Source: an uncultured Bacilli bacterium | Lineage (GTDB): Bacteria > Bacillota_I > Bacilli_A > RF39 > UBA660 | Reading direction: 5' to 3' | Assembly (NCBI GenBank): GCA_934101595.1 | Contig: CAKORR010000001.1 | Coordinates: 107,558 to 171,557, forward strand | DNA: 64,000 nucleotides | Shown here: positions 8,133-61,334 of the stretch, one piece after another | Layout of the letters: every line of letters starts with the position of its first letter | Numbering within the stretch: position 1 is the stretch's first letter | Position numbers and translations under genes: made by a program | The notes under the pieces: model-generated | Database searches by the model: none | The model's input: the letters and a program-made list of their open reading frames with translations, nothing else | What the model was told of the DNA's origin: nothing

Positions 8133-8161
8133 ATTATAAGAAAAATAAACAATTCAGTCAA
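8133..8161 (-). promoter_or_regulatory. near-consensus sigma-A promoter for paralog 1 (TTGACT-17nt-TATAAT)
   Basis: On the minus strand, TTGACT is the reverse complement of 8156-8161. A 17-nt spacer follows, then TATAAT (reverse complement of 8133-8138). AAGGAGA RBS lies 8 nt before the ATG. No homopolymer tract is present. Confidence 0.5.
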
Positions 8162-36106: not shown

Positions 36107-36137
36107 ACTATACCCCCCCCCCCGCGTATTTTGTCAA
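36107..36137 (-). promoter_or_regulatory. promoter with an 11-nt G homopolymer inside the -35/-10 spacer (putative phase-variation switch)
   Basis: Minus-strand reading is TTGACA (reverse complement of 36132-36137), AAATACGC, G×11 (plus-strand C run 36113-36123), then TATAGT (reverse complement of 36107-36112). Spacer is 19 nt. ATG lies 21 nt further downstream. Confidence 0.6.
36113..36123. repeat. homopolymeric C11 (G11 on the coding strand) tract
   Basis: Counted directly: C at 36113-36123. An 11-nt G/C run in a genome of very low GC. Confidence 0.9.
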
Positions 36138-38511: not shown

Positions 38512-38595
38512 ATTACCACGTCTCTTTCCCTATTCTTTATCATGTTAATTATAATATTATTCTCACATTAAATCAATTATAAAATTAAATACATT

Positions 38596-38623
38596 AAAAT
38601 AAAAATTACAGGGCACCCTGTAA
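38596..38623 (-). terminator. GC-rich intrinsic terminator between the LysM-SLT and LysM-M23 genes
   Basis: Minus-strand hairpin TTACAGGG-TG-CCCTGTAA (plus 38606-38623) followed by TTTTTATTTT. A TTGATT-17nt-TATAAT promoter candidate follows at about 38540-38575. Confidence 0.55.
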
Positions 38624-38627
38624 TCTT

Positions 38628-40484
38628 CTACATTATATCTCGTAACATTTCCGTATACTTCTTATTTAAACGATTAGCTAGATCTTGTTTAGTTATTACT
38701 CCATCGCCATCCACGTCTAAACCCCTATTATAAGAATAATAGCTTTCGCCTTTGACACATAAAGTATTTTTCTTGGCTCTACCTGGTAAGAACATAACCG
38801 CATATAATGTACCAGCATCTAATTCTTCGCCATTTTTGTAAGGACTAGCGCTTTTAATATATTTTTCAACTAAATCAAGTTGATCTGTTGCGGACATATT
38901 GGCTATCTGTTCAGTCGTGTAACCAAGATTACGAGCAGTGCTTGGCATAAATTGGATAAGGCCAACAGCTCTACTACTGCTTTCAATATGAGATGGATCA
39001 AGAGCACATTCTGAATACATAAGAGCAAGTAAATCATTTGGATCACAATTAACATTTTTAGCGACTTGTTCTAGTTTAGCACTAAATCCTGGCTCGAATC
39101 TGTCATCCAAACAACTTGCTAAAGCACTATCTAATACTTCTACTTTAGGAGAGCTAGTATTAGTACTTGTCTGAGCCGCGGATACTCCTTTTTCATTTGC
39201 TCTTTTATGGGCAGCTTCATTTCTATCTTTAGTTGCTTGTTCTCTTTCACTAATTTCCTTAGTATCACTTTCTTTAGATACAGCTTCTTTAACTTCTGTT
39301 TTTTCTTTAACCTCAGATTTTTTATCATCCTTACCAGATTCTGTTTCGTCAGTCTTTTTAGTTGCCACACTAACAGAACCAATGGCTGCAGCACCAATTA
39401 CGCCTTCAAATACTGGAGGGTTAATATCAAATGCTTCCTCTTCTTTTTCCTCAAACTTAAGACCTGTATATTTGCTAATAACATCTGCGGCACTTACAGG
39501 ATCATTACTTTCTTCTTTTTGACCTGGAATTGTAAGCACTTGTCCAGGATATATCAAGTTTGGATTATCGATCTTATCAGCGTTTGCTTCATAAAGCTCT
39601 TTCCAGTCAATTCCATATTTCGCTGCAATTTTAATTAAATAGTCACCTTTTTCAACAACATATGTTCCGTGATTAGAAGATGTACTATCACTACTAGTCC
39701 TTTTTCTTTCTTTAGCATATTCAAAGTCATTACGATATTCAAATTGTTTAATCTTGGCAAAATGATATTTTAACAAATTTAATTGGCGAGTTGCTTCATC
39801 AAGACATTTTTTAATATTAACTTTTATATTATTACACGCTGAATAGAAAAAACCACTAACTTGATAATCACTAGAAGATAAATCGTCATTGCCACTTGGA
39901 ATTTGAAAATCACTTGACCTCATGGAATTCATATTCAACATTTGCATATTTAAATATTTTACTATATTATTTAAGGGCTCAATGACTTGCTTCTCAAAAG
40001 TTGCTAAGTTTATCTCATATTTATCTGAATTATAGTTTTCCCATGGAGTAACCTCTATTTCCACAATTGGAGTTAAAACAGAAACTATTTCTTCTTTCTT
40101 TTTGATGATTTTCTTTTTTAATTCTTTAAGTGTCGAAGATATTATAATCTTTTGTTGAGCCAACATATAAACGTCCGCATGATCTTTATATGCAATTTCT
40201 TCATCTATAGTTTTGCACGCTTTGTATTTACTTTCATAAGATAACTTTAGGGCAAGTAAACCATCGGTTGGATTCATTACTAAATCAACCGCTTTGCTAT
40301 AATCTTTTAGCTGGTACATAATGCCTTCATTTTGGATATAGCTCAACATTCTATCAATAATATAGCATCTCCGCTTTAATTCAGCTGCTCTTTTTCCGTA
40401 AAACATCAAAGTTGCCGGATTAAATCTTTTAGATATCTGATATGCAAGAAAAATATTATTTGTATCTATTTTTACTTTAACCAT
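38628..40484 (-). CDS. LXG-like N-terminal domain + LysM + family-1 lytic transglycosylase (SLT) (candidate effector H)
   Basis: 618 aa with no signal peptide. N-terminus has ...LMFYGKRAAELKRRCYII (compare F-x-G-K-x-A-x-x-I-K of LXG domains). LysM at YVVEKGDYLIKIAAKYGIDWKELYEANAD...GQVLTIPG, then a K/E-rich low-complexity linker. The C-terminal SLT domain is about 70% identical to that of 25274-26167 (MYSECALDP...AVGLIQFMPSTARNLGY). Confidence 0.65.
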   Translation of the reverse strand: MVKVKIDTNNIFLAYQISKRFNPATLMFYGKRAAELKRRCYIIDRMLSYIQNEGIMYQLKDYSKAVDLVMNPTDGLLALKLSYESKYKACKTIDEEIAYKDHADVYMLAQQKIIISSTLKELKKKIIKKKEEIVSVLTPIVEIEVTPWENYNSDKYEINLATFEKQVIEPLNNIVKYLNMQMLNMNSMRSSDFQIPSGNDDLSSSDYQVSGFFYSACNNIKVNIKKCLDEATRQLNLLKYHFAKIKQFEYRNDFEYAKERKRTSSDSTSSNHGTYVVEKGDYLIKIAAKYGIDWKELYEANADKIDNPNLIYPGQVLTIPGQKEESNDPVSAADVISKYTGLKFEEKEEEAFDINPPVFEGVIGAAAIGSVSVATKKTDETESGKDDKKSEVKEKTEVKEAVSKESDTKEISEREQATKDRNEAAHKRANEKGVSAAQTSTNTSSPKVEVLDSALASCLDDRFEPGFSAKLEQVAKNVNCDPNDLLALMYSECALDPSHIESSSRAVGLIQFMPSTARNLGYTTEQIANMSATDQLDLVEKYIKSASPYKNGEELDAGTLYAVMFLPGRAKKNTLCVKGESYYSYNRGLDVDGDGVITKQDLANRLNKKYTEMLRDIM

Positions 40485-45942: not shown

Positions 45943-48253
45943 TTTTAAATATTAAATTATATATTTCTTGATAATTTTTTACAGTTATAATACTTATGTT
46001 ATCAAGGATTCTCTTATCAAGTTCTTTTAAAATAGCTTTGTTTTCATCAGGTATGATAACAGTTTTAATATTGCTATTATAAGCCCCGATTATTTTTTCT
46101 TTTAAACCTCCTATTTTTAAAACGTCTCCTCTTAGCGATAACTCACCAGTCAAAGCAATATCTTTGGAAACCTTTTTTTTGGTAAACAAACTTATTAAAG
46201 ATGTTAATATAGCAACTCCTGCACTAGGTCCATCTTTTTTTTGACCACCTGATAAAAAATGAATATGAATATTTTTCTTATAAAAGTAGTTTTCATTTAT
46301 CTCATATTTATCTACATTAGCCTTTAAGTAACTAAGAGCTACATCAACACTTTCTTTCATAGAATCACCAAGTAAACCAGTTATTAAAACTTTTCCTGTT
46401 CCATCATACATAGTTGATTCAACTTGGGTAACCAATCCTTTTTGAGAAGTATAAGCAAGTAAATTTACAGTGCCAAAATAATTATTATTATTAATACTAT
46501 TATCAAACTTTTTCTCACCTAAATATTTAGGTAAATCATCTTTTTTTAAACTGATCTTTACTTGGGTTTTATTTAATAAAGACTCGGTAATTATTTTTCT
46601 AATTATTTTATCAAGCGATCTTTCAAGTTCTCTTACTCCAGCCTCGGAAGTATATGAATTAATTATATTTTTTATAATATCATTGTTAATTTTTATTTCA
46701 TTTTTTATTTTTACTTTTTGAAACAATCTTGGAATTATATAATTATTAGCAATGTCTATTTTTTCAAACTCAGTATATCCTGGAATTTCAATTATTTCTA
46801 ATCTATCACGTAGCGGTTCTGGGATTAAATTTAAATCATTAGCAGTTAAAATAAATAATACCTTTGATAAATCAAATTCTTCATCAATATAATTATCTAT
46901 AAATCTACTATTTTGATTACTATCTAAAATATCAAGTAAAGCACTAGCCGGATCACCCTTTATGTCTTTGACCATTTTATCAACTTCATCAATTAGAATA
47001 ACCGGATTAGCAGTTTTACATTTAATTAAAGCATTTACTATTTTTCCAGCACTAGCTCCAACGTAGGTTCTTCTATGTCCAATTAATTCTGCTGTGTCAT
47101 TTAACCCTCCAACACTTATCTTAGCAAAGCTTTTATTTAACGATTTAGCTATACTTTCAGCAAGGGTTGTTTTACCAACCCCCGGAGGTCCAACCAAACA
47201 TATTATGGGTGATGGAATAGAATCATTTCGCGTACTAACAGCAATATACTCTAAAATTCTATTTTTAACTTCAAGAAGAGCATAATGGGTATCATCCAAA
47301 GAATTTTTAATTTTTGTTAAATCTGTTTCATCAGTACTTTTAACATTCCAAGGTAAAAGAAGTATAGTTTCAAGATAGGTACGAACAATACTCATTTCAG
47401 GGCTTGCTTCTGAGATTAAAGCATAAGATTCAATTTCACCTTTTAATTTAATTTTAAGTTGCTCGCTAATTTCTAAAGTTTCTAATTTGTTTTTAAAGTT
47501 TTTAACATCTTCTTTTATCAAAGAATCTTCTTCATTTAATTCTTTTTTAATTTCTCTTAATTTTTCTTTTAAAAGATATTTCTTCTGAGCTTCATCCAAA
47601 TCATTACTTAACGATTCCTCTATTTTAGCATCTAATTTTAATACTTGAATCTCAAAGTTAATATCTTCAATTAAATTTTTAGCACGATACATAGCGTTTA
47701 TTTCTTGCATGTAAGTAAGCTTTTTTTCTATACTTAAAGGCAAAAATGAGGTTATCATATCTGTCATTGAAAATAGAGAACGGCACTTTTCTAATCTGCT
47801 AAAAATGCTGTTGGAAATATGAGGCGCAGCGTTAACGTAATTATTAAGCATTTCTTTTAGTTTTCTTTTAACTGCTTCTTCCTCGGAAGCATCATACTTA
47901 GGAATGTGAACACTTGTAATTATACTATCAAGGATTTCACTATCCTCATCATTATTTTTATATTCAATAACTGAGACTCTTTCTAAGCCCTTTAAAGTAA
48001 TCCTTAGATTATTATTTGGTAAAATTAATTTACTTACAATTTTACTTAAAACGCCCACAGTTGGCAAATCTGTAACATCAGGGCTTTCCTCTTTTTGATC
48101 AAGCGGACATACCACTAAAACTTTGCCTTCAGATTTTTTTAATGATTCACTCACTACTTTTTTTGTTATCTCATTATTAAGTTCAAGTTTTACTTCTTGA
48201 TTAGGCAAAATAACAAAGCTTTTTAATAGCATAACAGGTAGTTCATTACTCAT
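45929..48253 (-). CDS. lon: ATP-dependent Lon protease
   Basis: 774 aa with the Lon N domain, AAA+ Walker A GPPGVGKTT, and proteolytic domain (...DGPSAGVAI... Ser, ...K... dyad). Confidence 0.9.
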   Translation of the reverse strand: MSNELPVMLLKSFVILPNQEVKLELNNEITKKVVSESLKKSEGKVLVVCPLDQKEESPDVTDLPTVGVLSKIVSKLILPNNNLRITLKGLERVSVIEYKNNDEDSEILDSIITSVHIPKYDASEEEAVKRKLKEMLNNYVNAAPHISNSIFSRLEKCRSLFSMTDMITSFLPLSIEKKLTYMQEINAMYRAKNLIEDINFEIQVLKLDAKIEESLSNDLDEAQKKYLLKEKLREIKKELNEEDSLIKEDVKNFKNKLETLEISEQLKIKLKGEIESYALISEASPEMSIVRTYLETILLLPWNVKSTDETDLTKIKNSLDDTHYALLEVKNRILEYIAVSTRNDSIPSPIICLVGPPGVGKTTLAESIAKSLNKSFAKISVGGLNDTAELIGHRRTYVGASAGKIVNALIKCKTANPVILIDEVDKMVKDIKGDPASALLDILDSNQNSRFIDNYIDEEFDLSKVLFILTANDLNLIPEPLRDRLEIIEIPGYTEFEKIDIANNYIIPRLFQKVKIKNEIKINNDIIKNIINSYTSEAGVRELERSLDKIIRKIITESLLNKTQVKISLKKDDLPKYLGEKKFDNSINNNNYFGTVNLLAYTSQKGLVTQVESTMYDGTGKVLITGLLGDSMKESVDVALSYLKANVDKYEINENYFYKKNIHIHFLSGGQKKDGPSAGVAILTSLISLFTKKKVSKDIALTGELSLRGDVLKIGGLKEKIIGAYNSNIKTVIIPDENKAILKELDKRILDNISIITVKNYQEIYNLIFKNEKQ

Positions 48254-48356
48254 AATCTTGCCTCCTCAAGTTATTGGTTTTTATTATAAGTACTAAATCT
48301 TGTTTTGTAAACATAATTAGACATTTTTTGACACAAAAAAAGAAGCGATTGCTTCT

Positions 48357-50030
48357 TTATAATTCATATTTAACTACAGCATCACCGCTCCAGTTACTTC
48401 CTAAAGTCATTCCTGTTGCATCAGCTCTTTTTATAGTAATTGTTGATGCATTAGTTAGGCCATTAAATGCTCTATCATCTATTTTGGTTACACTATTTGG
48501 AATAATGACATTTGTAATTGTTGACTGAGCAAACGCGGCGTTATAAATTTCCGTATATCCTTGGGCAATTTCTAATTTATTAATTTTCATGTTTGTGAAT
48601 GCGCCATTAGCAACTGTTTCATTAGTATTAATATGGCCTAAAATATCATGACCAGTTACATACGTAAATGTTAAATTATTAATGGTTGACCCTTCAAAAT
48701 ATCCTATTGCACTATACTCATTTACAGGGTTAAATATTAATGATCCATAAAGTTCTAGAGTATCAATATTACTATAGGCAAATGCTCCAACACCAATTTT
48801 TATATCACTAGTATTAACTCCAAAATTTAGACTTGTTAGTCCAACTCTTTGAGTTTGTGTTGTATCAAGTTCATATGATGTTTTTCCATCACTTGTCGTC
48901 TCTTTATACATAACATTTGAAAATGCAAATTTTTCTATTTCTTCTAGTTTAGTGGCTTTTGAGAAATTAACACCTTTTATTACTAAAGAAGCACTAACTT
49001 TTGGCGTTTGGCTTACCGTCATTTCACCGTCTTCACTTTCAGGTAAAATATAATATAATCCTTCTTCTCCAGCCGTTGCCGTTTCGGGTACATCAGATTC
49101 TTTAGTTACATAAGTAATAGTTGCTGTTTGATCCTCTTCTGTTAAACCATTTAGTAATGCTTCTATACGTGATCTATTTGATTCATTTTTTACAAGAATA
49201 TAATATTTCATTCCTATGTAAACATCGTTAGTAGAGTCATATGTTGCATTTGATGAATCATTCCACATCATAAAATCAGTTAAGTCCTTTTCTTGTCTAA
49301 ATGCACTTGTTGCTATTTTCTTAACATCTTTTTTATTAACACTTTCAGGAATAACTACATTTTCTCCACATGAAGTATCATATGCGGTAATCACTCCATT
49401 AGAATCTATTGTAAAGCAGTTTTCTGGAGTAGCAACTAAACCTTCATTGTCATTTTTAATTCCTTGTCCACCCGTTATAAATATTTTTCCATTAAATTGT
49501 TTTCCTTGTTCAGTAATAGGTGCATTTTCATCAATCCATATTTTTAGCAAATGAGTCTTAGTGGCATTACCACCTATAGATGCGGTTTTTAATTCTTTTG
49601 ATGATCTATAAGTATCAGGGCCTTCGATATCATTTAAACTACCATATGTTCCTAAAACCTCATTATCTATAGATAGTGCAACAGCACTATCTGACATATA
49701 TCCCGTATTTGCATCCCCATCTACTGATTCCAAACCTATAATATAATTTACGGCATTACTACAATTATTAGTTACCGTAAAAGTGTATCCAGTTAAATCA
49801 TTTTGAGCATTAGCACTAGTCATTGGCCAGCTATTTTCTAAACTGATGGGTGTGCCTTCGCCTACTTTATTAAGATCTAAATCTAGACATGCCGCGATCA
49901 TGCTATTTTTATCTTTTTGAGTTTTAGTTACTTGCCATAAGGCATAAGTCGAAGCAACTATTATTAAAAGAACTAAGCAGATTCCAATAGACATACCAAT
50001 AATTTTATTACGTCTAACACTATTTTCCAT
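48357..50030 (-). CDS. exported surface protein, paralog 3 (TasA-like signal + LRR)
   Basis: 557 aa. N-terminus ...LLIIVASTYALWQVTKTQKDKNS. Shared core CFTIDSNGVITAYDTSCGENVVIPESV. LRR-like C-terminus. Upstream TTGACT-18nt-TATTAT promoter candidate has no homopolymer. Confidence 0.6.
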   Translation of the reverse strand: MENSVRRNKIIGMSIGICLVLLIIVASTYALWQVTKTQKDKNSMIAACLDLDLNKVGEGTPISLENSWPMTSANAQNDLTGYTFTVTNNCSNAVNYIIGLESVDGDANTGYMSDSAVALSIDNEVLGTYGSLNDIEGPDTYRSSKELKTASIGGNATKTHLLKIWIDENAPITEQGKQFNGKIFITGGQGIKNDNEGLVATPENCFTIDSNGVITAYDTSCGENVVIPESVNKKDVKKIATSAFRQEKDLTDFMMWNDSSNATYDSTNDVYIGMKYYILVKNESNRSRIEALLNGLTEEDQTATITYVTKESDVPETATAGEEGLYYILPESEDGEMTVSQTPKVSASLVIKGVNFSKATKLEEIEKFAFSNVMYKETTSDGKTSYELDTTQTQRVGLTSLNFGVNTSDIKIGVGAFAYSNIDTLELYGSLIFNPVNEYSAIGYFEGSTINNLTFTYVTGHDILGHINTNETVANGAFTNMKINKLEIAQGYTEIYNAAFAQSTITNVIIPNSVTKIDDRAFNGLTNASTITIKRADATGMTLGSNWSGDAVVKYEL

Positions 50031-50130
50031 ATATTAACCTACTTTCTATGTTAATAATACAATTAACTCTTTTGGATAGTCAATATAAATTAAATAAATA
50101 AACATTTTTTTACATAAAAAAAGCCCTATA

Positions 50131-51951
50131 TTAAGGCTCAAATTTAATTGTTGCATTGCTACTCCAATTTTCACCTAAAGTCATGCCATCTAGATTTGCT
50201 CTTTTCATAATTATTGTGTCTTTTTCTATAGCACCAGCAAATGCCTTTTCGCCAATAATCTTAACATTTTTAGGCACGACTATAGAAGTTAATAAAAAGT
50301 CGTTTTCACTATCTTCATCACTAAAAACAAATTGATATCCGCCAATTTCGATTAATGATTCTGGCAAATTTACATTTTTTATAAATACGCTTTGAAATGA
50401 TTGTTCACTTATTTTAGTAATGCCTTCGCTTATATTAACAGTTGTAACATAGGATAGAAAAAATTGGCCGCTTAAAACCGATCCGATTACTCCGCCAACA
50501 GTTGTATCATCAACAGTTTTATCTTTATAGTCAATCACAGTATTATCCTTAGATGGTTTAATTGTTAGATTATTAATTGAACTCATACCAAATGTTTGTG
50601 AATTGTATCCTTTTTCTATAGTGCCTGTAAGCGAATTATAAACTGTTAATTTATCAAGTTTGCTAAACAAAAAAGCCCCCGTACCTATTTTTATGGCATT
50701 ATCATTAGCCCCAAAATTAATATAAGTTAATCCAAAATCTAAAGAATTATCAAAATTATCTTTACCATTAGCAGTTGCCTTATCATAATTTGCTGAAATT
50801 TTATCAAGACCAGCTTCGGTCGTACCATCATAAAGGGTAAATGCATATGGTTCTATTTCTTCTAAGTAAATTGCTTTTGAAAAATCTACTCCTTTAATAG
50901 TAAATATATTGTCCTTATAAGGAGTTTGAGCTAATAAAAATTCATCCTCGCCATTCTCATCCTTGGCAATAATGCCATACTTACCTTCTTCTGTTTCACT
51001 CGCTGTTGTTGGAAGTTCTGATTCGTTATTTATGAAAAAGTTATTTGAGGCTTCTTCTTCAGATACTTTTTTAAAAAACTCTTCTATTCTACTCTTGGCT
51101 TTGTCATTTTTAACTATTATATAATACTTTATTCCTGTAGTCTTATCTTCTTTTTCATCATACACCGAAGAACTTAAATCTTCCCAAAGCAAAAAATCTG
51201 TAACATCTTTTTCTGGTCTAAATGCGTTAGTAGCGATCTTTTTTACTTTGACATTGTTAACGCTTGCAGGTATTACAACCATTTCTCCACAAGAATCATC
51301 ATATTTAGAAATAATTCCATTAGAATCTATTGTAAAACATTTTTCCGGAGTTGCTAATAACCCTGGATTATCATTTAAAATTCCTTGACCACCAGTTATA
51401 AATATTTTTCCATTAAAGGCTTTTCCCTGTTCCGTAATAGGAGCTCTTTCATCAATCCATATTTTTAATAAATGCGTATTGGTTTCTTTTCCCTTGATTT
51501 CAGCAGTTTTTATTTCTTTTGATAAAATATATGTATCAGGGCCTTCGATATCATTTAAGCTATTAAATGTTCCTAACACATCGTCATCAATTGCTAATGC
51601 AACTGCTGATGCACTTAAACTTGCTAGCCTTTCATCTTCTAATGATTCAAGTCCTATTACATAACTTATTGGCGTATCACAATTATTAGTTACGGTAAAT
51701 GTATATCCTGTTAATTCTTTTACGGCATCAACCGCATTCATAGGCCAACTATTTTCAAGGTTAATAACACTACCTTCACCAGTTTTGTTAAGATCAAGAT
51801 CTAGGCATGCCGCAATCATACTATTTTTATCTTTTTGCGTTTTAGTTACTTGCCATAAGGCATAAGTCGAAGCAATTATAATTAGAAGTACCAGAGCAAT
51901 TCCTATAGATACCCCTATAATTTTGTTATGTTTATTATTTTCACTTTTCAT
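50131..51951 (-). CDS. exported surface protein, paralog 4 (TasA-like signal + LRR), driven by a poly-G-containing promoter
   Basis: 606 aa. N-terminus ...LLIIIASTYALWQVTKTQKDKNS. In tandem with paralog 3. RBS TAGGATGG. Confidence 0.6.
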   Translation of the reverse strand: MKSENNKHNKIIGVSIGIALVLLIIIASTYALWQVTKTQKDKNSMIAACLDLDLNKTGEGSVINLENSWPMNAVDAVKELTGYTFTVTNNCDTPISYVIGLESLEDERLASLSASAVALAIDDDVLGTFNSLNDIEGPDTYILSKEIKTAEIKGKETNTHLLKIWIDERAPITEQGKAFNGKIFITGGQGILNDNPGLLATPEKCFTIDSNGIISKYDDSCGEMVVIPASVNNVKVKKIATNAFRPEKDVTDFLLWEDLSSSVYDEKEDKTTGIKYYIIVKNDKAKSRIEEFFKKVSEEEASNNFFINNESELPTTASETEEGKYGIIAKDENGEDEFLLAQTPYKDNIFTIKGVDFSKAIYLEEIEPYAFTLYDGTTEAGLDKISANYDKATANGKDNFDNSLDFGLTYINFGANDNAIKIGTGAFLFSKLDKLTVYNSLTGTIEKGYNSQTFGMSSINNLTIKPSKDNTVIDYKDKTVDDTTVGGVIGSVLSGQFFLSYVTTVNISEGITKISEQSFQSVFIKNVNLPESLIEIGGYQFVFSDEDSENDFLLTSIVVPKNVKIIGEKAFAGAIEKDTIIMKRANLDGMTLGENWSSNATIKFEP

Positions 51952-51973
51952 ATTTTACTACCATCCTATTTTA

Positions 51974-52003
51974 ACTATACCCCCCCCCGGAGCATTTTGT
52001 CAA
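51974..52003 (-). promoter_or_regulatory. promoter with a 9-nt G homopolymer inside the -35/-10 spacer (putative phase-variation switch)
   Basis: Minus-strand reading is TTGACA (reverse complement of 51998-52003), AAATGCTCC, G×9 (plus-strand C run 51980-51988), then TATAGT (reverse complement of 51974-51979). Spacer is 18 nt. The flanks are conserved with the 36107-36137 cassette. Confidence 0.6.
51980..51988. repeat. homopolymeric C9 (G9 on the coding strand) tract
   Basis: Counted directly: C at 51980-51988. Confidence 0.9.
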
Positions 52004-52034
52004 ATAAAAAAACATATGCTTTTAACATATGTTT
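52004..52034 (-). terminator. intrinsic terminator downstream of the TPM-domain gene, abutting the -35 box
   Basis: Minus-strand hairpin AAACATATG-TTAAAAG-CATATGTTT followed by TTTTTTATT, then TGACA. Confidence 0.55.
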
Positions 52035-52048
52035 ACATAAGAAAAATT

Positions 52049-52801
52049 TTAAAAACCACGTGAACTTCCGCCACCACCGGAAGAGCCTCCACCTCCAGAG
52101 AATCCTCCAAATGATGAATGACTAGACGAAGAGTCACTATCGCCAAAGCCAAAGAATAAAGTGTTATTTCTTCTTCGACCACCAGGTTTTTGATTACGGC
52201 TTGCAATAAGGACGATTATAACGAATATAAAAATTATACCCAAGCGAAAGAACACTTCATAATCTACATTGCTTTCTTTTTCTGGACTATCTACAGAGCC
52301 ATCATAATTATAATAGTCAGCCACTTCTTTAAAAAATGCTTTATAACCATTTAACATTCCTTCATTAAAATCATTAGTTTTAAAGTAAGGAATCATATAC
52401 TCATCTTGAAATCTTCCTGTTTTACCATCTGGTAATATGCCCTCTAAACCATATCCAACTTCTACGCGCATTTTTCTTTCTTCCAAAGATAATAACAATA
52501 ATAAGCCATTATTCTCATTCTTATTACCAATCTTGAAATTACGGAATAATTGTGTAGCATATTCTTCCAAACTTGCTCCATTTAAATTTGGTACTGTTAC
52601 TACAACGATTTGAGCTGTTGTTTTACTGGCAAGTGCTACACTATGCTCTTGGATATAATTTTCAGTTTCACTATCTAGTATGTTAGCATAATCATTAACA
52701 TAATAATTTCTTGTTGGAGTAACAGTTTCAAATGCTAAAACGTGTTCTTTAGGAATACATAAAACTACTAAAAAAAGAAAAAAGAATAAAATCTTTTTCA
52801 T
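52049..52801 (-). CDS. TPM-domain (YgcG-like) protein with Gly-rich C-terminus
   Basis: 250 aa: signal peptide, TPM/phosphatase-like domain (...YANILDSETENYI...QIVVVTV...), a TM helix, then a GGGGSSGGGGSS tail. Immediately downstream of lemA, a conserved pair. Confidence 0.7.
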   Translation of the reverse strand: MKKILFFFLFLVVLCIPKEHVLAFETVTPTRNYYVNDYANILDSETENYIQEHSVALASKTTAQIVVVTVPNLNGASLEEYATQLFRNFKIGNKNENNGLLLLLSLEERKMRVEVGYGLEGILPDGKTGRFQDEYMIPYFKTNDFNEGMLNGYKAFFKEVADYYNYDGSVDSPEKESNVDYEVFFRLGIIFIFVIIVLIASRNQKPGGRRRNNTLFFGFGDSDSSSSHSSFGGFSGGGGSSGGGGSSRGF

Positions 52802-52802
52802 T

Positions 52803-53366
52803 TTAGAACTCTACTTTTGGAGCATCAGTTTTACTTTGATCTGCTTCAAAATAAGCTTTTTTATCAAATCCGAACATATTAGCTAAAATATTAGTTGGGA
52901 ATGTTTTAATAGCTGTATTGTATGAAGTAACAGCATCATTATAGTCGCGTCTTGCCGTAGCTATTCTATTTTCAGTCCCCGCAAGCTCATCAGATAATTG
53001 AATAAAGTTTTGACTTGACTTTAAGTCAGGATAATTTTCAACTACTACCATTAATGCATTCAAAGCACTAGTTAACTCGCTATTAGCAGCACTTTTCTCA
53101 GATACAGTATTTGCTTTTAATAAATTTTCTCTAGCTGAAGTAATTTTATTAATTATTTCAGTTTCATGAGAAGTATAACCCTTTACTGTACTAACTAAGT
53201 TAGGTATTAAATCTGCTCTTCTTTCTAATTGGACATCAATATTAGATAATTCTCTATCCACTTTTTCTTTTTTAGCAACTAATCCATTATAACTACCACC
53301 AATACTAGCAATAATAATGATAACGATTGCCACAACCCCTAATAAAATCATTGTTGATTTTTTCAT
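52803..53366 (-). CDS. lemA: LemA-family membrane protein
   Basis: 187 aa with an N-terminal TM followed by ...YNGLVAKKEKVDRELSNIDVQLERRADLIPNLV..., the LemA consensus. Confidence 0.8.
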   Translation of the reverse strand: MKKSTMILLGVVAIVIIIIASIGGSYNGLVAKKEKVDRELSNIDVQLERRADLIPNLVSTVKGYTSHETEIINKITSARENLLKANTVSEKSAANSELTSALNALMVVVENYPDLKSSQNFIQLSDELAGTENRIATARRDYNDAVTSYNTAIKTFPTNILANMFGFDKKAYFEADQSKTDAPKVEF

Positions 53367-53454
53367 AACTCACCTTCCTAAAATAAGAATAACAATACTT
53401 AATTAAAAAAAGAAGACTATTTCTCATTTGTTTACATTTTTAGACATTTTGATA

Positions 53455-53483
53455 ATTTAAAAACATATGCAAAATGCATATGT
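53455..53483 (-). terminator. intrinsic terminator downstream of ileS
   Basis: Perfect 11-bp inverted repeat AAACATATGCA-AAA-TGCATATGTTT with a U-run on the minus strand. TGTTTACAT motif lies nearby (53429-53437). Confidence 0.5.
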
Positions 53484-53489
53484 TTAATT

Positions 53490-56400
53490 TTAAATTTTCT
53501 CGATATCAATTAGTACTTCATGAGAATTTATATCAAGCTTCTCATTTAAATTATCCTTTTTAGAAATTTCAACAGCTAAAGTTTCATCTTTAATATATTG
53601 TTCAAATTCTTTGAATGATTTTTCTATTTCTTGATCAGCATTGTAATATAATTTTATACGATCAACTACATCAAAGTCTTTATTTTTTCTTAATTGTTGA
53701 ACTTTAGAAACGATTTCTCTAGCATTTCCTTCAAGAATTAATTTATCTGTTAATTCAGTATTTAAAATAACAAATAAATTATTATCCATGCCAACATTAA
53801 AGCCTTCTTTATTAGAAATTCTAATATCAATTAGATCACGAGTAATTTCATAATCCTTACCATTTATTTTTAAAGTAACAGATTCACTATTTTCTAGTTT
53901 TTTAATAGAATCTTTGTCTAACTCTTTTAAAGCATTTTGATATTCTTTAATATCTTTGCCAAATACTTTACCTGCCTCTTTAAAGTTCGGTCTAATTTCT
54001 AAATTCATGTATTCATTTAAATCATCATTAAACTTAACATTTTTAACGTTCAACTCTTCTTCAATCAACCATACTAAATCATCAATAATAGCTTTTTTTC
54101 CGCCATCTAAGATAATCTCACTTAAAGGTTGACGAACCTTTATTTTGTTTTCTTCCCTAACCATACGTCCAATCGAAATTAAATCTCTTACTAAATCCAT
54201 CTTTTCTTCTAATTTATCATTTATTAGCGATAAATCATACTTAGGGAAATCTTCTAAATGAACAGATTCTTTGTCAGTCAAATTGGTAAATATTTCCTCA
54301 CTAATAAAAGGAGTGATTGGGGCAATCATTTTTGATAACCCAACTAATACATCATATGTAGTTTTATATACAGCTTTTTTTGAATTATCTAAATCGCTTT
54401 GCCAGAACCTTTTTCTATTTCTTCTAATATACCAGTTAGATAAGTCATTTGAAACAAACTCTGTTACAGCTTTGACAACTTTATTTAAATCATATTCATC
54501 ATAACTATCAGTAACATATTTTAAAAGTTTATTATATTTTGATAAAAGCCACTTATCTATTTCTTCTAAATCATCATATGATACATCACATGCATTAATA
54601 TCAATCTCATCCGTATTAGCATACATAGCAAAGAAATTATAGGTGTTTTTTAGAGGATTAAAGAATTTAGAATATACTTCTTTCATACCATTTATATCAA
54701 ATTTAAGTGGAGTCCATACTGGTGATACGTATGGTAAATAGAATCTTACTACATCAGCACCATACTCTTTAATTGTTGTAAATGGTTCGACTATATTGCC
54801 TCTACTTTTAGACATCTTATGTCCATCTTTATCTTGAATTAGATCATTTACTAATACGCTTTTAAATGGGCTTACCCCTTTTACAAAAACTGAAATAACA
54901 AGTAGCGTATAGAACCAACCTCTTGTTTGATCTATGCCTTCACAGATAAAATCAGCAGGAAACTGAGAATTGAACAACTCTTCATTTTCAAAAGGATAAT
55001 GATACTGAGCAAATGGCATTGATCCAGAATCAAACCAACAATCAATTACATCTTTTGCACGAGTCATTTTTCCTTGACATTTAGGGCATCTTAAATGAAC
55101 ATTATCTACATATGGTCTATGTAATTCAATAGATGTATCAATATCTTCGATTGCAAGATCTACAAGTTCTTTTCTACTTCCAACCATGATACTGTGACCA
55201 CATTCACAAATCCAATATGGAAGTGGGGTTCCCCAATATCTTGAACGAGATATTGCCCAATCTTTTAAATTCTCAAGCCAATTTCCAAAACGCTTCTCGC
55301 CAACATATTCTGGATACCATTTAACTTTTTTATTTGCTTCAATTATTTTATCTTTAATTTTTGTTATTTCAAGATAATAACTAGGTTTTGAATAGTAAAT
55401 AAGTGGTGAATCACATCTCCAGCAATGAGGATAAGCATGAACTATTTTTTGCTTTTTAAATAGTTTATCATTTTTCTTTAAATATTCTATAACTAACTTG
55501 TCGGCATCAAAAACGTTCATACCTTTCCATGGACCGTCTAAATATTTTCCATCTTCTCCTACTGGATTTAAATATGGTAAATTATATTTTTTACCTACGT
55601 TAGCGTCATCTTCACCAAATGCAGGAGCTAAGTGAACAATACCGGTACCATCTTCCATTGTTACATAGTTATCTACAGTTACGTAAAATGCCTTTTTGTT
55701 AACTGATAAGCCAGGAATTAATTGCTCATATTCACTATACTCTAAATCTTTACCTAAATAAGTTCCTAATATTTCATATTCATCTCCTAGAACCTTATTA
55801 GCTAATTTTTTTGCTAAAATAAATTTATAACCTTGAGAAAGAACTTTAACATATTCTTCATTAGGATTTACACATAATGCCACATTGGCAACTAAAGTCC
55901 AAGGAGTTGTTGTCCATACTAAGAAGTAAACATCCTCATCTTTTTTCTTCATAGGAACAATAACTGTTTCTACTGAAACATCTTTATATCCTTGCGCAAC
56001 TTCATGTGAAGCTAAACCTGTTCCACATCTAGGACAATATGGTAATATTTTAGATCCTTCATAAAATAGTCCCTCATCAAAGAATTTTTTTAATATCCAC
56101 CATTCAGTTTCAATATAATCATTTTGATAAGTTACATAAGGATGTTCCAAATCAATGAATTGGCCCATTTTACTAGTCAATAATGAAAAAGCCTTTTCAT
56201 TTTTCCAAACACTTTCACGGCACTTTTTATTAAATTCTTCGATACCATATTTTTCGATATCTTTTTTGCCACTAAAGCCTAACTCTTTTTCTACTTGCAA
56301 CTCAACTGGAAGGCCATGAGTATCCCATCCAACTTTTCTTAATACTCTCTTACCTTGCATTGTTTTGTACTTACAAAATGTATCTTTTAAAAACTTAGCA

Positions 56401-56585
56401 AGCATATGATGTAAACCTGGAAGTCCGTTAGCTGTTGCAGGGCCATCATAAAAAACAAAGTTTTCACAATTTTTTCTATTTTCAATTGTTTCTTCTAATA
56501 TCTTGTTAACTCCGCCCCATTTTTTTAGAATACTTTCTTCAACTTGATCAACAGGTCTTTTGTCTAATTCTTTAAAATTTTTCAT
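53490..56585 (-). CDS. ileS: isoleucine--tRNA ligase (long, type-2-like form)
   Basis: About 1030 aa class I aaRS with a HIGH-region variant (...GLPGLHHMLAKF...) and KMSKSRGN. Size and insertions fit IleRS. The start is set at MKNFKEL (ATG 56583-56585) with an AAAGGA RBS rather than the longer track ORF. Confidence 0.85.
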   Translation of the reverse strand: MKNFKELDKRPVDQVEESILKKWGGVNKILEETIENRKNCENFVFYDGPATANGLPGLHHMLAKFLKDTFCKYKTMQGKRVLRKVGWDTHGLPVELQVEKELGFSGKKDIEKYGIEEFNKKCRESVWKNEKAFSLLTSKMGQFIDLEHPYVTYQNDYIETEWWILKKFFDEGLFYEGSKILPYCPRCGTGLASHEVAQGYKDVSVETVIVPMKKKDEDVYFLVWTTTPWTLVANVALCVNPNEEYVKVLSQGYKFILAKKLANKVLGDEYEILGTYLGKDLEYSEYEQLIPGLSVNKKAFYVTVDNYVTMEDGTGIVHLAPAFGEDDANVGKKYNLPYLNPVGEDGKYLDGPWKGMNVFDADKLVIEYLKKNDKLFKKQKIVHAYPHCWRCDSPLIYYSKPSYYLEITKIKDKIIEANKKVKWYPEYVGEKRFGNWLENLKDWAISRSRYWGTPLPYWICECGHSIMVGSRKELVDLAIEDIDTSIELHRPYVDNVHLRCPKCQGKMTRAKDVIDCWFDSGSMPFAQYHYPFENEELFNSQFPADFICEGIDQTRGWFYTLLVISVFVKGVSPFKSVLVNDLIQDKDGHKMSKSRGNIVEPFTTIKEYGADVVRFYLPYVSPVWTPLKFDINGMKEVYSKFFNPLKNTYNFFAMYANTDEIDINACDVSYDDLEEIDKWLLSKYNKLLKYVTDSYDEYDLNKVVKAVTEFVSNDLSNWYIRRNRKRFWQSDLDNSKKAVYKTTYDVLVGLSKMIAPITPFISEEIFTNLTDKESVHLEDFPKYDLSLINDKLEEKMDLVRDLISIGRMVREENKIKVRQPLSEIILDGGKKAIIDDLVWLIEEELNVKNVKFNDDLNEYMNLEIRPNFKEAGKVFGKDIKEYQNALKELDKDSIKKLENSESVTLKINGKDYEITRDLIDIRISNKEGFNVGMDNNLFVILNTELTDKLILEGNAREIVSKVQQLRKNKDFDVVDRIKLYYNADQEIEKSFKEFEQYIKDETLAVEISKKDNLNEKLDINSHEVLIDIEKI

Positions 56586-56619
56586 AACCATTTCCTTTCT
56601 AAAATAAAAAACACCCATC

Positions 56620-56800
56620 CAAAGGACGAATGTTTCGTGGTACCACCTTAATTATACTCATCTTAATAACGCCATCTAGACGGATTATCTTACACTTATT
56701 TCAGATAATCAGCTCCCAAGTGATTTTAGATAATTTCTTCTTCTTAGTTTTCACCAACCACTAATTCTCTTTAAGAATAGATTACCTAACATGTCTTGTT
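56620..56800 (-). promoter_or_regulatory. T-box riboswitch leader (Ile specifier) upstream of ileS
   Basis: Minus-strand AATTAAGGTGGTACCACG (reverse complement of 56636-56653) matches the T-box consensus AAUUAGGGUGGUACCGCG at 16 of 18 positions. AAAGAGA K-turn-like stem I start (about 56761-56772). GAAAUUAUC contains Ile codons AUU/AUC in the specifier-loop region (about 56728-56737). The terminator region precedes the RBS. Confidence 0.7.
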
Positions 56801-56849
56801 CATTGCTTTTATAGTCATTAGTATATCACAATTTTTTTAAATATCTAGT

Positions 56850-57896: not shown

Positions 57897-58076
57897 TCAT
57901 CTATTTCTATAAATTTCAGATTGATACAAATCTTTCACTATCTCCATTAGTCTAGCTACTTCTTTTTCAGTGGGTGTAATTGGAAATGGTAGCCCTGTTT
58001 CACGTAAATATATTTCTTCTGCTTTGTATCTATATTTGTTCATCATATTTTTTTCTTGATCACTAAACTGGGTCAT
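57897..58076 (-). CDS. small hypothetical protein (59 aa), not in the ORF track
   Basis: Minus-strand ORF MTQFSDQEKNMMNKYRYKAEEIYLRETGLPFPITPTEKEVARLMEIVKDLYQSEIYRNR with an upstream AGGGA-like RBS. Forms an operon with the two downstream hypotheticals. Confidence 0.35.
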   Translation of the reverse strand: MTQFSDQEKNMMNKYRYKAEEIYLRETGLPFPITPTEKEVARLMEIVKDLYQSEIYRNR

Positions 58077-58196
58077 GTTATCCCTACTTTCCTATAAAAA
58101 TTCTACTATTAATATAAAGTTTTGTCAAACCATGTGCAAAGTTATTTACGCATTTTAACAATGTTTGTTACAATTAAGAAAAGGATGGTAGATATA

Positions 58197-59552
58197 ATGG
58201 ATTATAATATTTTTCGAGCCTATGATATAAGGGGCGTTTATCCTAGTACAATTAATAAGGATGTAAGTTATACCATTGGTAGAGCTTATGGAAGTTACAT
58301 CAGAGAAAAACTTGGTAAAACATTTTGTGTGGTATCCCATGACAATAGATTAAGTAGTGAAGAATTATCTAGCTTTTTAATTAAAGGCATAACTGAAAGT
58401 GGATGTAATGTTATAAATTATGGATTAACTACAACTCCTATGAATTATTATGCTAGATATTTAAACAATTCTTTAGGAATAATGGTAACGGCTAGTCATA
58501 ATCCCAAAGATGATAATGGATTTAAGTTTTCTTTTGATAACTTAGCTAATGCTCGTGGCGAAATGATAACTGATTTTAAAAATTATGTTATGGCTGGCAA
58601 GTTTTTAAGCGGAACTGGCTCTGTTACTAATAATGATATGGTAAATAAATATATCGAGTATTTTAAAAATGGTATTTCAATGGGTCCTAATAGAAGAAAA
58701 GTCATTATCGATTGTGGAAATGGTGTTACATGTACTGTAGCAAGGAAAATCCATGAAAATTTTAATATTGATTTTGAAGTTATTTGTGAAGAAAATGATG
58801 GTAGTTTTCCTAACCACCACCCTGATCCAAACGTTGAAGAAAATCTAAGTATGTTAAAGAAAAAAGTTTTGGAAACAAAAGCAGATATTGGCATTGCTTA
58901 TGATGGTGACGGCGATCGTGTCGGAATAATAGATAATGAAGGAAAATATGTTACAACTGAAGAATACATGATTTTAATAATCAGAGATATTATTAATAAG
59001 GTCAAAAATAAAACATTTTTATATGATGTAAAATGCTCAAAATCCCTAGAAGATGAAATTTTAAGACTAGGTGGTACACCTTTTTGTTATCGTACTGGAG
59101 CAAGCTATACCCAAGCTAAAACTAAAATGGATAACTTAGCCTTTGGTGGTGAGTACTCAGGTCATATTTATTTTAGAGATCGTGTTAATGATATTAATAG
59201 TGGTATTTATGCGGGATTAAGACTTGTCGAGATATTATCAAAAACATCAGATAAATTAAGTGATATGACTAAAAACATTCCTAAATATTATCATACTCCT
59301 GAACTAAGAATTCCCGTAAGTGATGATAAAAAATTTATGGTAGTAGAAAAAATAAAAGAATACGCTAAAAGCGTTAACTTCCAAATAAATGATATAGATG
59401 GCGTTAGAATTAATTTTTCTAATGGTTGGGCTTTAATAAGAGCAAGTAATACGGGTCCAAATCTTACTGTTAGAGTTGAAGCTAATGATAATGATTCAAT
59501 GGTTAGATTAAAGGAATTTGTATTAAAGTTAATCGATACATATAGTAAATAA
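58197..59552 (+). CDS. phosphomannomutase/phosphoglucomutase-family phosphohexomutase
   Basis: Start set at MDYNIFRAYDIRGVY (ATG 58197-58199; the track ORF starts at 58122). Active-site TASHNP and GEYSGH. Confidence 0.8.
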   Translation: MDYNIFRAYDIRGVYPSTINKDVSYTIGRAYGSYIREKLGKTFCVVSHDNRLSSEELSSFLIKGITESGCNVINYGLTTTPMNYYARYLNNSLGIMVTASHNPKDDNGFKFSFDNLANARGEMITDFKNYVMAGKFLSGTGSVTNNDMVNKYIEYFKNGISMGPNRRKVIIDCGNGVTCTVARKIHENFNIDFEVICEENDGSFPNHHPDPNVEENLSMLKKKVLETKADIGIAYDGDGDRVGIIDNEGKYVTTEEYMILIIRDIINKVKNKTFLYDVKCSKSLEDEILRLGGTPFCYRTGASYTQAKTKMDNLAFGGEYSGHIYFRDRVNDINSGIYAGLRLVEILSKTSDKLSDMTKNIPKYYHTPELRIPVSDDKKFMVVEKIKEYAKSVNFQINDIDGVRINFSNGWALIRASNTGPNLTVRVEANDNDSMVRLKEFVLKLIDTYSK

Positions 59553-59582
59553 AAAAGATTTCGTTTGAAATCTTTTTTTATT

Positions 59583-61334
59583 TTATAAATATCTCATTAA
59601 TATGAAAATTAATAATAAACATAACAACATACCTAAAGCAAATTTCCAGATATATTTTATGTAGTCTTTATAATCAACATCAGTATAAGTTAATCCAGCA
59701 ACCAAAATAATACTTGTTGGAGCAATGAATGCTACAAACCCAAACATAGCAACAAATATAAATACTATTAGATTAATATTAGCTCCAAATGCTTGCAACA
59801 TATATCCAGATGTAGTGTATCCAGTATAAACCATATCGTTATGGAAAATATGAGTAATAAATGCAGCAAGTGTTGTTTTAGCTATACTAAAATCAGTATC
59901 TACATTAACATTTGGATATCCATCTTGATCAGAATCATAATTTAATGTTGATGTATTACTACTTTTACTATATGTTTTTTCGATTGTTTCATCAGCTTCG
60001 GTAATCTTGCCATCGCCATCAAAATCTAGATAAGCATCAGGCCATCCATCTCCGTCAGTGTCACAATTAATTGTACATGACTTATTTTTAGTAGCATCAT
60101 TAACTAAGTTAAAATCTGCTTTTTGATCGTTGTCTTTATCTAAGTTAAAGAACGCTATTCCACTACCCTTATAATCTATATTAATATCAGGACGTCCATC
60201 AGTTTTAATTAAATTATGAGTAATAGTGCTCATCATTGGTGAAAAATAGAAAATTATGTATACTGAATAAGCGGCTACTACTAAAAGACTAACTTTTCCC
60301 ATCTTTTTAAGTCCATTTAAAGCAGCATCTTTAAATTTAGTGAAATCAATTCTATAAATTATTATTAATAATAAACTAAATACTAAAAGTAATGCATCTA
60401 AACTATAAAGATTAAATTTTGCATAATCACTTAATTGATTTCCGAATGGTGCTAATGAACTACCTAAAATGCTGGCAATCAATTTAAAATCATTCTTACC
60501 AATTGAAAGCGAAGTTAACCATTCATGGAAACTATTAAAGGTTGTTATACCAAAATTTCCATTCCAATCTATTATTCCTAAAACCGTAATAACTAAGATA
60601 ATAGCCATTAACACAATTAGAGGAATATAGCTTTCTTTACTCTTTTTACTTTCAACTTCGAATACATCATTTTTAGATTCATTTACATTTTTCTTTAAAA
60701 CATTCTTGATATGAATTATTGTAAAGAAATTAAATAAAATTAATGATACAACTAGAACTAATACTCTGTACCAAACATCTATTTTCATGAAATTTAGAGT
60801 TGATTGTTGAGTAATATAACTATTTAACCAATAAAAACCATCTGTACCAAATGTTGCTCCTAATGTTCCAACTAATATCGATCCAAAAGTTACCATAAAT
60901 GCCGTCATCTTATCCATTTTAGCATTCAAGATAATACTTATGATAAATGGAACAAATACTAATACTCCAAATGAAGTAAAACTAAATGATGTTAATACAG
61001 CAATAAGTACTGATGATATAACTGCAAATAATATTTCCTTTCCTTTTATTTTATTAGCTATTTTTAAGACTAAATTATTATAAGCAGGAATTTTTTGTAA
61101 TATTCCATAGAATACACCCAAAACAAGTAAGAACAATACTTTATCTATACTCATGTAAATCATAAAATAAAGTAAGTTTCCTAAATCTGCTAAACCAAGT
61201 CTAACTTTTTCTCCAGCAACATATTCTGCTCCATTAAATGATCCGGTCGGAACAATCCATGTTAGAACAAATGCTAGAACAAAAAATATAGCTAATAATT
61301 TACCTAAACTATGTTTTTCAAAAAACTTTTTCAT
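59583..61334 (-). CDS. YfcC-family polytopic membrane transporter with inserted acidic Ca-binding-type D-x-D-x-D-G repeats
   Basis: 583 aa. N-terminus ...AIFFVLAFVLTWIVPTGSFNGAEY matches YfcC (…FFV…TWVVPVGMF…). An extracytoplasmic insertion has CDTDGDGWPDAYLDFDGDGKITEADE, DSDQDGYPNVNVDTD. Confidence 0.55.
   Translation of the reverse strand: MKKFFEKHSLGKLLAIFFVLAFVLTWIVPTGSFNGAEYVAGEKVRLGLADLGNLLYFMIYMSIDKVLFLLVLGVFYGILQKIPAYNNLVLKIANKIKGKEILFAVISSVLIAVLTSFSFTSFGVLVFVPFIISIILNAKMDKMTAFMVTFGSILVGTLGATFGTDGFYWLNSYITQQSTLNFMKIDVWYRVLVLVVSLILFNFFTIIHIKNVLKKNVNESKNDVFEVESKKSKESYIPLIVLMAIILVITVLGIIDWNGNFGITTFNSFHEWLTSLSIGKNDFKLIASILGSSLAPFGNQLSDYAKFNLYSLDALLLVFSLLLIIIYRIDFTKFKDAALNGLKKMGKVSLLVVAAYSVYIIFYFSPMMSTITHNLIKTDGRPDINIDYKGSGIAFFNLDKDNDQKADFNLVNDATKNKSCTINCDTDGDGWPDAYLDFDGDGKITEADETIEKTYSKSSNTSTLNYDSDQDGYPNVNVDTDFSIAKTTLAAFITHIFHNDMVYTGYTTSGYMLQAFGANINLIVFIFVAMFGFVAFIAPTSIILVAGLTYTDVDYKDYIKYIWKFALGMLLCLLLIFILMRYL

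Follow-up and report, generated by a model that had tools for sequence, protein, structure and literature searches.

A variable poly-G tract in a predicted promoter spacer as a probable slippage switch for a BspA-type surface-protein gene of an uncultured Bacilli bacterium

Introduction

Can a run of nine G residues, placed between the -35 and -10 hexamers of a predicted promoter, act as a switch for the surface-protein gene that follows it? The question is raised by a locus on the minus strand (52003..51974) of a 64,000-nt stretch of DNA, referred to here in its full length as the window, from an uncultured Bacilli bacterium (GenBank assembly GCA_934101595.1, contig CAKORR010000001.1, positions 107,558 to 171,557). 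Contingency loci driven by repeats are textbook material in Neisseria, Haemophilus, Campylobacter, Helicobacter and the mycoplasmas. In the tpr family of Treponema pallidum (poly-G) and the vlp family of Mycoplasma hyorhinis (poly-A), each member has its own promoter-region homopolymer, which allows combinatorial ON/OFF expression of surface antigens; the tpr tract lies upstream of the transcription start and is ON at eight Gs or fewer. These systems involve other protein families and other lineages than the locus described here. To our knowledge, repeat-driven loci have hardly been described in uncultured low-GC gut commensals, where attention has mostly been given to invertible promoters.

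Results

Read on the minus strand, 52003..51974 is TTGACA-AAATGCTCC-GGGGGGGGG-TATAGT, which confirms an earlier note on this DNA that had described a TTGACA element, a spacer of 18 nt closed by nine Gs, and a TATAGT element. The -35 hexamer (51998..52003) is perfect and the -10 hexamer (51974..51979) matches at five of six positions, making this the best promoter-like match (11/12) in a scan of positions 48000-53500. The spacer consists of 9 nt of non-repeat sequence (AAATGCTCC, 51989..51997) and the G9 tract itself (51980..51988, C9 on the plus strand), which is the variable element and takes up spacer positions 10-18, or half of the spacer. The -10 hexamer sits 23 nt upstream of the ATG (51951) of an ORF of 606 aa (50131..51951, minus strand), separated from it by a short leader (51952..51973) that contains a Shine-Dalgarno-like GGATGG at 51966-51961; transcription is predicted to start near 51967, from the usual spacing after a -10 element. 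In length the tract falls into the slippage-prone class of homopolymers of at least 7-8 nt. It ends 28 nt upstream of the ATG and hence outside the ORF, and is thus not a frameshift locus of the 606-aa gene.

Such a run is unusual in a window with a GC content of 28.5%. Just two G or C runs longer than 5 nt were found in the 64 kb, G9 and a G11 run at 36113-36123, and runs of G8 or longer, of which 0.10 would be expected in the window, were observed twice. Both long runs occupy the spacers of promoters scoring 11/12 upstream of paralogous genes. The placement of G9 exceeds chance.

The promoter appears to belong to a self-contained unit. Upstream lies a gene for a TPM-domain membrane protein of 250 aa (52049..52801, minus strand; Pfam PF04536, E 7.8e-41), with 45 nt between its stop codon and the -35 element. 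Within this gap a terminator-like hairpin (52010..52034, minus strand) has an 11-bp stem formed by AAACAUAUGUU and AGCAUAUGUUU (RNA fold -8.9 kcal/mol, z -3.7), and the T-run that follows it merges into the -35 element; the hairpin would shield the G9 promoter from read-through out of the TPM gene. A second terminator-like hairpin (50121..50139, minus strand) overlaps the stop codon of the 606-aa gene and would confine the switch to that single gene. Further downstream is a tandem paralog of 557 aa (48357-50030, minus strand) with a promoter-like element of its own, the tract-less TTGACT-18-TATTAT at 50083-50054, which brings the whole feature to 48357..50083. Given this separate promoter and the intervening hairpin, the tract would therefore control the 606-aa gene alone. 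Direct repeats between the two tandem genes are 76-78% identical.

The controlled gene encodes a BspA-type leucine-rich repeat (LRR) protein and putative surface adhesin. The 606-aa protein matched Pfam LRR_5 (PF13306) with E 4.6e-11 and 43.1 bits against a gathering cut-off of 27.7, and its paralogs scored 51.5-62.1 bits; in the NCBIfam scan, LRR matches (HupY/LrrG) were weak and far below threshold. Its N-terminus comprises a transmembrane helix and a conserved Cys-containing beta domain, followed by C-terminal BspA-type LRRs. In an AlphaFold model (pLDDT 72), residues 4-37 form a helix and residues 50-187 a beta domain, accompanied by LRR-like strands, and the hydrophobic helix in the model suggests a membrane anchor or signal. 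The best Foldseek match of this model in the PDB was the pneumococcal surface antigen PcpA (4cp6, E 7e-5), and another of the top matches was an LRR protein of Eubacterium ventriosum. The whole-model search gave weak matches to LRR and beta-sandwich folds, with no informative match to the conserved N-terminal domain. The model and these matches are consistent with a membrane-anchored protein of the surface or adhesin type, to which an adhesin-like function may be ascribed.

Four paralogs of this family are found in the window (6574-8109, 34560-36086, 48357-50030 and 50131-51951), which share an N-terminal hydrophobic helix, the conserved motif 'YALWQVTK', an N-domain with Cys residues and LRR_5 repeats of the BspA type. 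They form two closely related pairs, and in each pair one member has a G tract and the other an ordinary promoter. The second tract belongs to the 508-aa paralog (34560-36086): a sister switch at 36107..36137 on the minus strand reads TTGACA-AAATACGC-G11-TATAGT with a 19-nt spacer, the 508-aa gene lying about 14 kb from the 606-aa gene. The earlier note had called G9 a second copy of the same switch on a tandem paralog. The alignment upholds one part of this, namely that the same promoter cassette precedes a paralog; the word tandem does not apply to the sister, since the G11 gene is about 14 kb away and the tandem partner of 50131-51951 is the tract-less 48357-50030. The note was also right that the two loci are in different tract-length states, G9 and G11. 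Their spacers differ by a single base (18 versus 19 nt) despite the difference of two Gs, because G9 is combined with 9 nt of non-repeat sequence and G11 with 8 nt. An ortholog of the sister locus in the metagenome assembly OIYS01 (L063) has ACGCC followed by G8, which results in a 17-nt spacer. An exact-sequence look-up of the 508-aa paralog gave no match.

The 508-aa protein and the 511-aa paralog at 6574-8109 have almost identical N-terminal halves and different promoters, the tract-less TTGACT-17-TATAAT at 8161 for the 511-aa gene and the G11 cassette at 36137 for the 508-aa gene; the homology of the two genes ends near the start codon. The 606-/557-aa tandem pair is mosaic in other strains (L007, L050). 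Two orthologs of the 606-aa type (P0011 and P0012) contain residues ~241-350 of the 557-aa type, and one ortholog of the 557-aa type (P0014) contains residues ~60-240 of the 606-aa type. On the aligned sequences, this mosaicism suggests gene conversion between the tandem genes, which would add a second layer of surface variation. In contig L002 (1997-3645) the 557-aa paralog has lost 25 bp and is broken into two ORFs (340 and 184 aa), a change that is likely a pseudogenisation or another off state.

We gathered orthologous loci from public assemblies by means of the exact 606-aa protein, of orthologs with 86-99% identity to it, and of the TPM protein encoded next to it. Fifteen independent contigs were counted. 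L080 and L081 were left out, as they derive from the contigs already represented by L001 and L007, and because L001 and the window do not differ across 4700 nt, these two were treated as one observation. By assembly consensus from short-read metagenomes, a type of data in which poly-G runs are error-prone, the tract was G9 in seven of these metagenome contigs (window/L001, L002, L004, L049, L051, L083 and L084), G10 in five (L003, L006, L050, L082 and L086) and G11 in three (L005, L007 and L085). A uniform length had been named in advance as the result that would speak against a switch; instead, lengths from G9 to G11 were present among the 15 contigs, near-identical strains included. For example, just 2 substitutions across 2987 nt separate L003 from the window, yet L003 has G10. 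The spacers were 18, 19 and 20 nt, and G8 (a 17-nt spacer) was not seen among the 15 orthologous contigs. Judged from the alignments, this variation is the pattern that a selected, fast-mutating tract would produce.

Beyond these orthologs, a profile scan of species-representative genomes found the paralog family only in metagenome-assembled genomes (MAGs) labelled uncultured 'Bacilli bacterium' and 'Tenericutes', from sources that include goat caecum and rabbit; a single-protein scan of a genome contig collection did not find a close relative. In the MAG JAZRRD01, 20 promoters follow the pattern TTGAC[AT]-N-G8..15-TATG[AC]T, nearly all of them upstream of a family ORF, with spacers of 15 (three promoters), 16 (six), 17 (one), 18 (five) and 19 nt (five). 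Every one of the 20 has a hairpin and T-run upstream, equivalent to those before the G9 promoter, and the sister switch is preceded in the same way. If the JAZRRD01 promoters were instead read with an extended -10 (TGcTATATA), the case for the spacer model would be weaker in one class of promoter.

In the rabbit MAG CANRKL01, nine paralogs (L035, L037, L039, L041-L045 and L047) have the G tract inside the gene, in codons 7-10. At eight of the nine loci a G10 tract leads to a stop after 11-15 codons, and at the remaining one a G9 tract leaves the ORF intact. From its reading frames, this tract is an unambiguous predicted frameshift switch within the same protein family, with eight of nine copies OFF in the assembly.

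OIYS01 came from a scan of metagenomes for G8 followed by TATAGTTAA. In three of its contigs (L066, L067 and L075) a Gn-TATAGTTAA cassette lies in front of genes for unrelated proteins, membrane-anchored or secreted, of 252, 377 and 497 aa. The cassette of L066 differs very little from the one before the 606-aa ortholog in L050, which suggests from sequence similarity that the poly-G cassette moves between genes. Together with the family tracts of JAZRRD01 and CANRKL01, the OIYS01 cassettes therefore point to a reusable surface-protein device in the clade. The scan gave 28 metagenome matches to GGGGGGGGTATAGTTAA, most of them unrelated sequences of high GC or of other kinds, and only the four OIYS01 contigs were retained as relevant.

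Discussion

We consider it probable, at roughly 80%, that G9 is a hypermutable homopolymer in the spacer of a sigma-70/sigma-A-type promoter and serves as a contingency switch driven by slippage. Slipped-strand mispairing during replication would add or remove single Gs, and each change would alter both the distance between TTGACA and TATAGT and their rotational phasing, as in the 18-, 19- and 20-nt states read from the contigs. Given the sensitivity of RNA polymerase to spacer length, the change in spacing would raise or lower transcription of the single downstream BspA-type LRR gene. With terminator-like hairpins insulating the unit on both sides, the tract alone would set expression of the 606-aa gene, and would do so independently of the sister switch at 36113-36123. 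The expected outcome is a heritable, reversible and stochastic ON/OFF switch, or a 'volume control', for one member of a surface-protein family.

Which tract length corresponds to which state can be estimated from the promoters native to the window. Near-consensus -35/-10 pairs on the gene strand peak at a spacer of 17 nt (16 of the 58 pairs scoring at least 10/12), and four near-consensus promoters that lie just upstream of start codons (58128, 48311, 27153 and 8161) all have 17 nt. One-base steps in the tract should therefore matter, and G9, with 18 nt, would therefore be one step off the optimum. Since native promoters favour this spacing, G8 is probably the full-ON length. On the same sequence grounds, G9 as found in the window may be a reduced or intermediate state that still permits some transcription, and G10 and G11 (19 and 20 nt) should be poor or OFF. 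The label 'ON-like' that had earlier been given to G9 is plausible at roughly even odds. With eight of nine CANRKL01 paralogs OFF, the commonest assembled tract state may be a low or OFF one.

Against the slippage switch stands, first, an improbable alternative in which the tract is real and mutates fast but is a neutral, slippery spacer, the gene being controlled by other means. Drift in an unselected tract could give what was observed here, spacers of 18-20 nt that never include the 17-nt optimum. A long G run should nevertheless decay quickly in a genome of 28.5% GC unless selected, and this one has been kept. In the 86%-identity ortholog L050 the non-repeat spacer (AAATTAACC) and the leader have diverged, with TTGACA, G10 and TATAGT retained; the other variant of the non-repeat spacer among orthologs is AAATGCCTC. 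Tracts are likewise present at the sister locus, in the ~20 paralog promoters of JAZRRD01 and before other surface-protein genes. A neutral spacer would also leave unexplained why the tract is found, without exception, precisely between conserved hexamers: the -35 hexamer is unchanged in every spanning ortholog contig, L050 included, and TATAGTTAA at the -10 is invariant across all aligned cassettes. Finally, the same family in CANRKL01 uses a tract within the ORF, where an effect is unavoidable.

A slightly less probable explanation still is that the length differences are sequencing or assembly errors and that the tract is a fixed spacer of one true length. Illumina chemistry miscalls long G runs, all the data are consensus contigs, and some contigs (L002, L003 and L020) break near the tract or at paralog repeats. 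Random error, by contrast, would not be expected to follow the flanking sequence as the lengths do. Two flank haplotypes were found, ...GCTCC (ctcc) and ...GCCTC (cctc), of which ctcc holds G9 and G10 and is mostly G9, while cctc holds G9, G10 and G11 and is mostly G11, and this partial association argues against pure sequencing error. Two assembly pipelines, the k141 contigs in ENA and the Logan contigs, gave the same range of 9-11. In the ~4.7-kb alignment of close orthologs, four A7/T7 runs are invariant and, apart from the tract, the promoter and 606-aa gene show no non-triplet indel; the sole other one in the alignment is the 25-bp deletion in the 557-aa gene of L002. Paralog tracts, moreover, span 8 to 15 residues.

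Five independent Logan contigs (L082-L086) all end exactly 134 nt after the tract. These ends lie ~100 nt into the 606-aa gene, where the N-terminal coding stretch of the tandem paralogs is nearly identical, and the assembly was probably broken by this paralog repeat and not by the tract.

Unlikelier again is the proposal that the G run is a regulator binding site, or an A-form or G-rich structure, such that control is regulated and the length incidental. In all ~40 instances the coding strand is the one with the Gs, which could mean a strand-specific function, but descent of the cassettes from a common ancestor explains it equally well. For a binding site one would expect a fixed length, whereas here the length alone varies and the hexamers are fixed, and the tract of the relatives works inside the ORF, where frame alone matters. 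We rejected a quadruplex because a single run of nine Gs is too short, and no single run of 9-11 Gs can form a three-tetrad quadruplex. Control by site-specific inversion of the promoter (an inverton) has a negligible probability and was rejected, since the only flanking inverted repeats are short and AT-rich (10-16 nt, 81-100% complementarity, at chance level) and the promoter has the same orientation in all ortholog contigs.

In the related loci L008-L048 (~193 kb), every G or C run of at least 7 nt is G on the gene-sense strand and none is C. The sense strand of the window is also its G-rich strand, presumably the leading strand.

The slippage reading of G9 can be extended to the lineage in more tentative form. 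An insulated poly-G cassette, composed of a hairpin, a T-run fused to TTGACA, Gn and TATAGTTAA, may have been spread by duplication and recombination before many different surface-protein genes of an uncultured gut clade of Bacilli/Tenericutes type, with an in-ORF G tract replacing the cassette in sister lineages; we would put the chances of this somewhat below even. If it is true, commensal Gram-positive-type gut bacteria would possess a large undescribed simple-sequence-repeat (SSR) 'phasome', with ON/OFF states that could be read directly from metagenomes.

The class of mechanism is already well established, and it is the lineage that is little-studied. In Neisseria, poly-C or poly-G tracts between the -10 and -35 elements control fetA and porA (PMC5320596). 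As cited there (van der Ende 1995, Carson 2000), the length of the poly-G tract of porA and of the poly-C tracts of fetA (frpB) and opc is strain-dependent and sets promoter strength through spacing. The present locus resembles these in having a G/C homopolymer of ~9-14 nt between the -35 and -10 of a surface-protein gene. It differs in its host, an uncultured Bacilli bacterium of Gram-positive type with 28.5% GC rather than a proteobacterium; in its gene, which encodes a membrane-anchored BspA-type LRR protein; and in its cassette, which has a terminator fused to the -35 as insulation and recurs throughout a large paralog family.

A closer parallel in protein family is Ca. Mycoplasma girerdii, in which at least 28 BspA-like surface proteins vary through simple repeats, as seen in metagenomic reads (PMC5476646). 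Both are host-associated organisms related to the Mollicutes or Bacilli with a multi-copy BspA-like LRR family and simple-sequence repeats. The repeats of Ca. Mycoplasma girerdii are mostly in-ORF dinucleotides that cause frameshifts, whereas the tract described here is a mononucleotide G run in a promoter spacer and would act on transcription; the CANRKL01 relatives from rabbit have their G tract within the ORF. In Streptococcus pyogenes, a one-nucleotide indel in an intergenic homopolymer at Spy1336/R28-Spy1337 is reported to change the transcript levels of a surface-protein gene (PMC7098570). This example is Gram-positive, but it concerns a T tract in the divergent intergenic region of a pathogen, whereas the tract described here consists of Gs, lies in a promoter spacer and recurs within a paralog family. 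Literature searches on RF39, gut Firmicutes and homopolymer phase variation returned no description of such switches in this lineage. The points of interest are the insulated cassette used family-wide and the way in which sister lineages place the tract either in the promoter or inside the ORF.

If the slippage switch is real, this clade varies a large BspA-type surface family gene by gene through single-base slippage, some lineages using the promoter for this and others the reading frame, which would bear on the evasion of IgA or phage and on the choice of adhesin. Assemblies and gene calls at poly-G loci show only the majority length of each sample, and metagenomic reads could then be used to follow expression state, with tract length as the marker.

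Other features of the window

Upstream of the sister switch, positions 36841-40484 (minus strand) encode two large LysM-containing proteins resembling cell-wall hydrolases, one combining LysM with an M23 peptidase and the other LysM with an SLT transglycosylase. Their presence suggests an organism with a peptidoglycan wall, although relatives are labelled 'Tenericutes'.

A T-box leader (56619-56812, minus strand; 118 bits against a gathering cut-off of 93) lies directly upstream of the isoleucyl-tRNA synthetase gene at 53490-56618, an arrangement that is usual in genomes of the Firmicutes type. A positive plus-strand GC skew (+0.14) occurs in a single stretch of the window, 58001-60000. Outside this stretch the genes of the window are almost all on the minus strand, and 58001-60000 may be a short block of opposite orientation.
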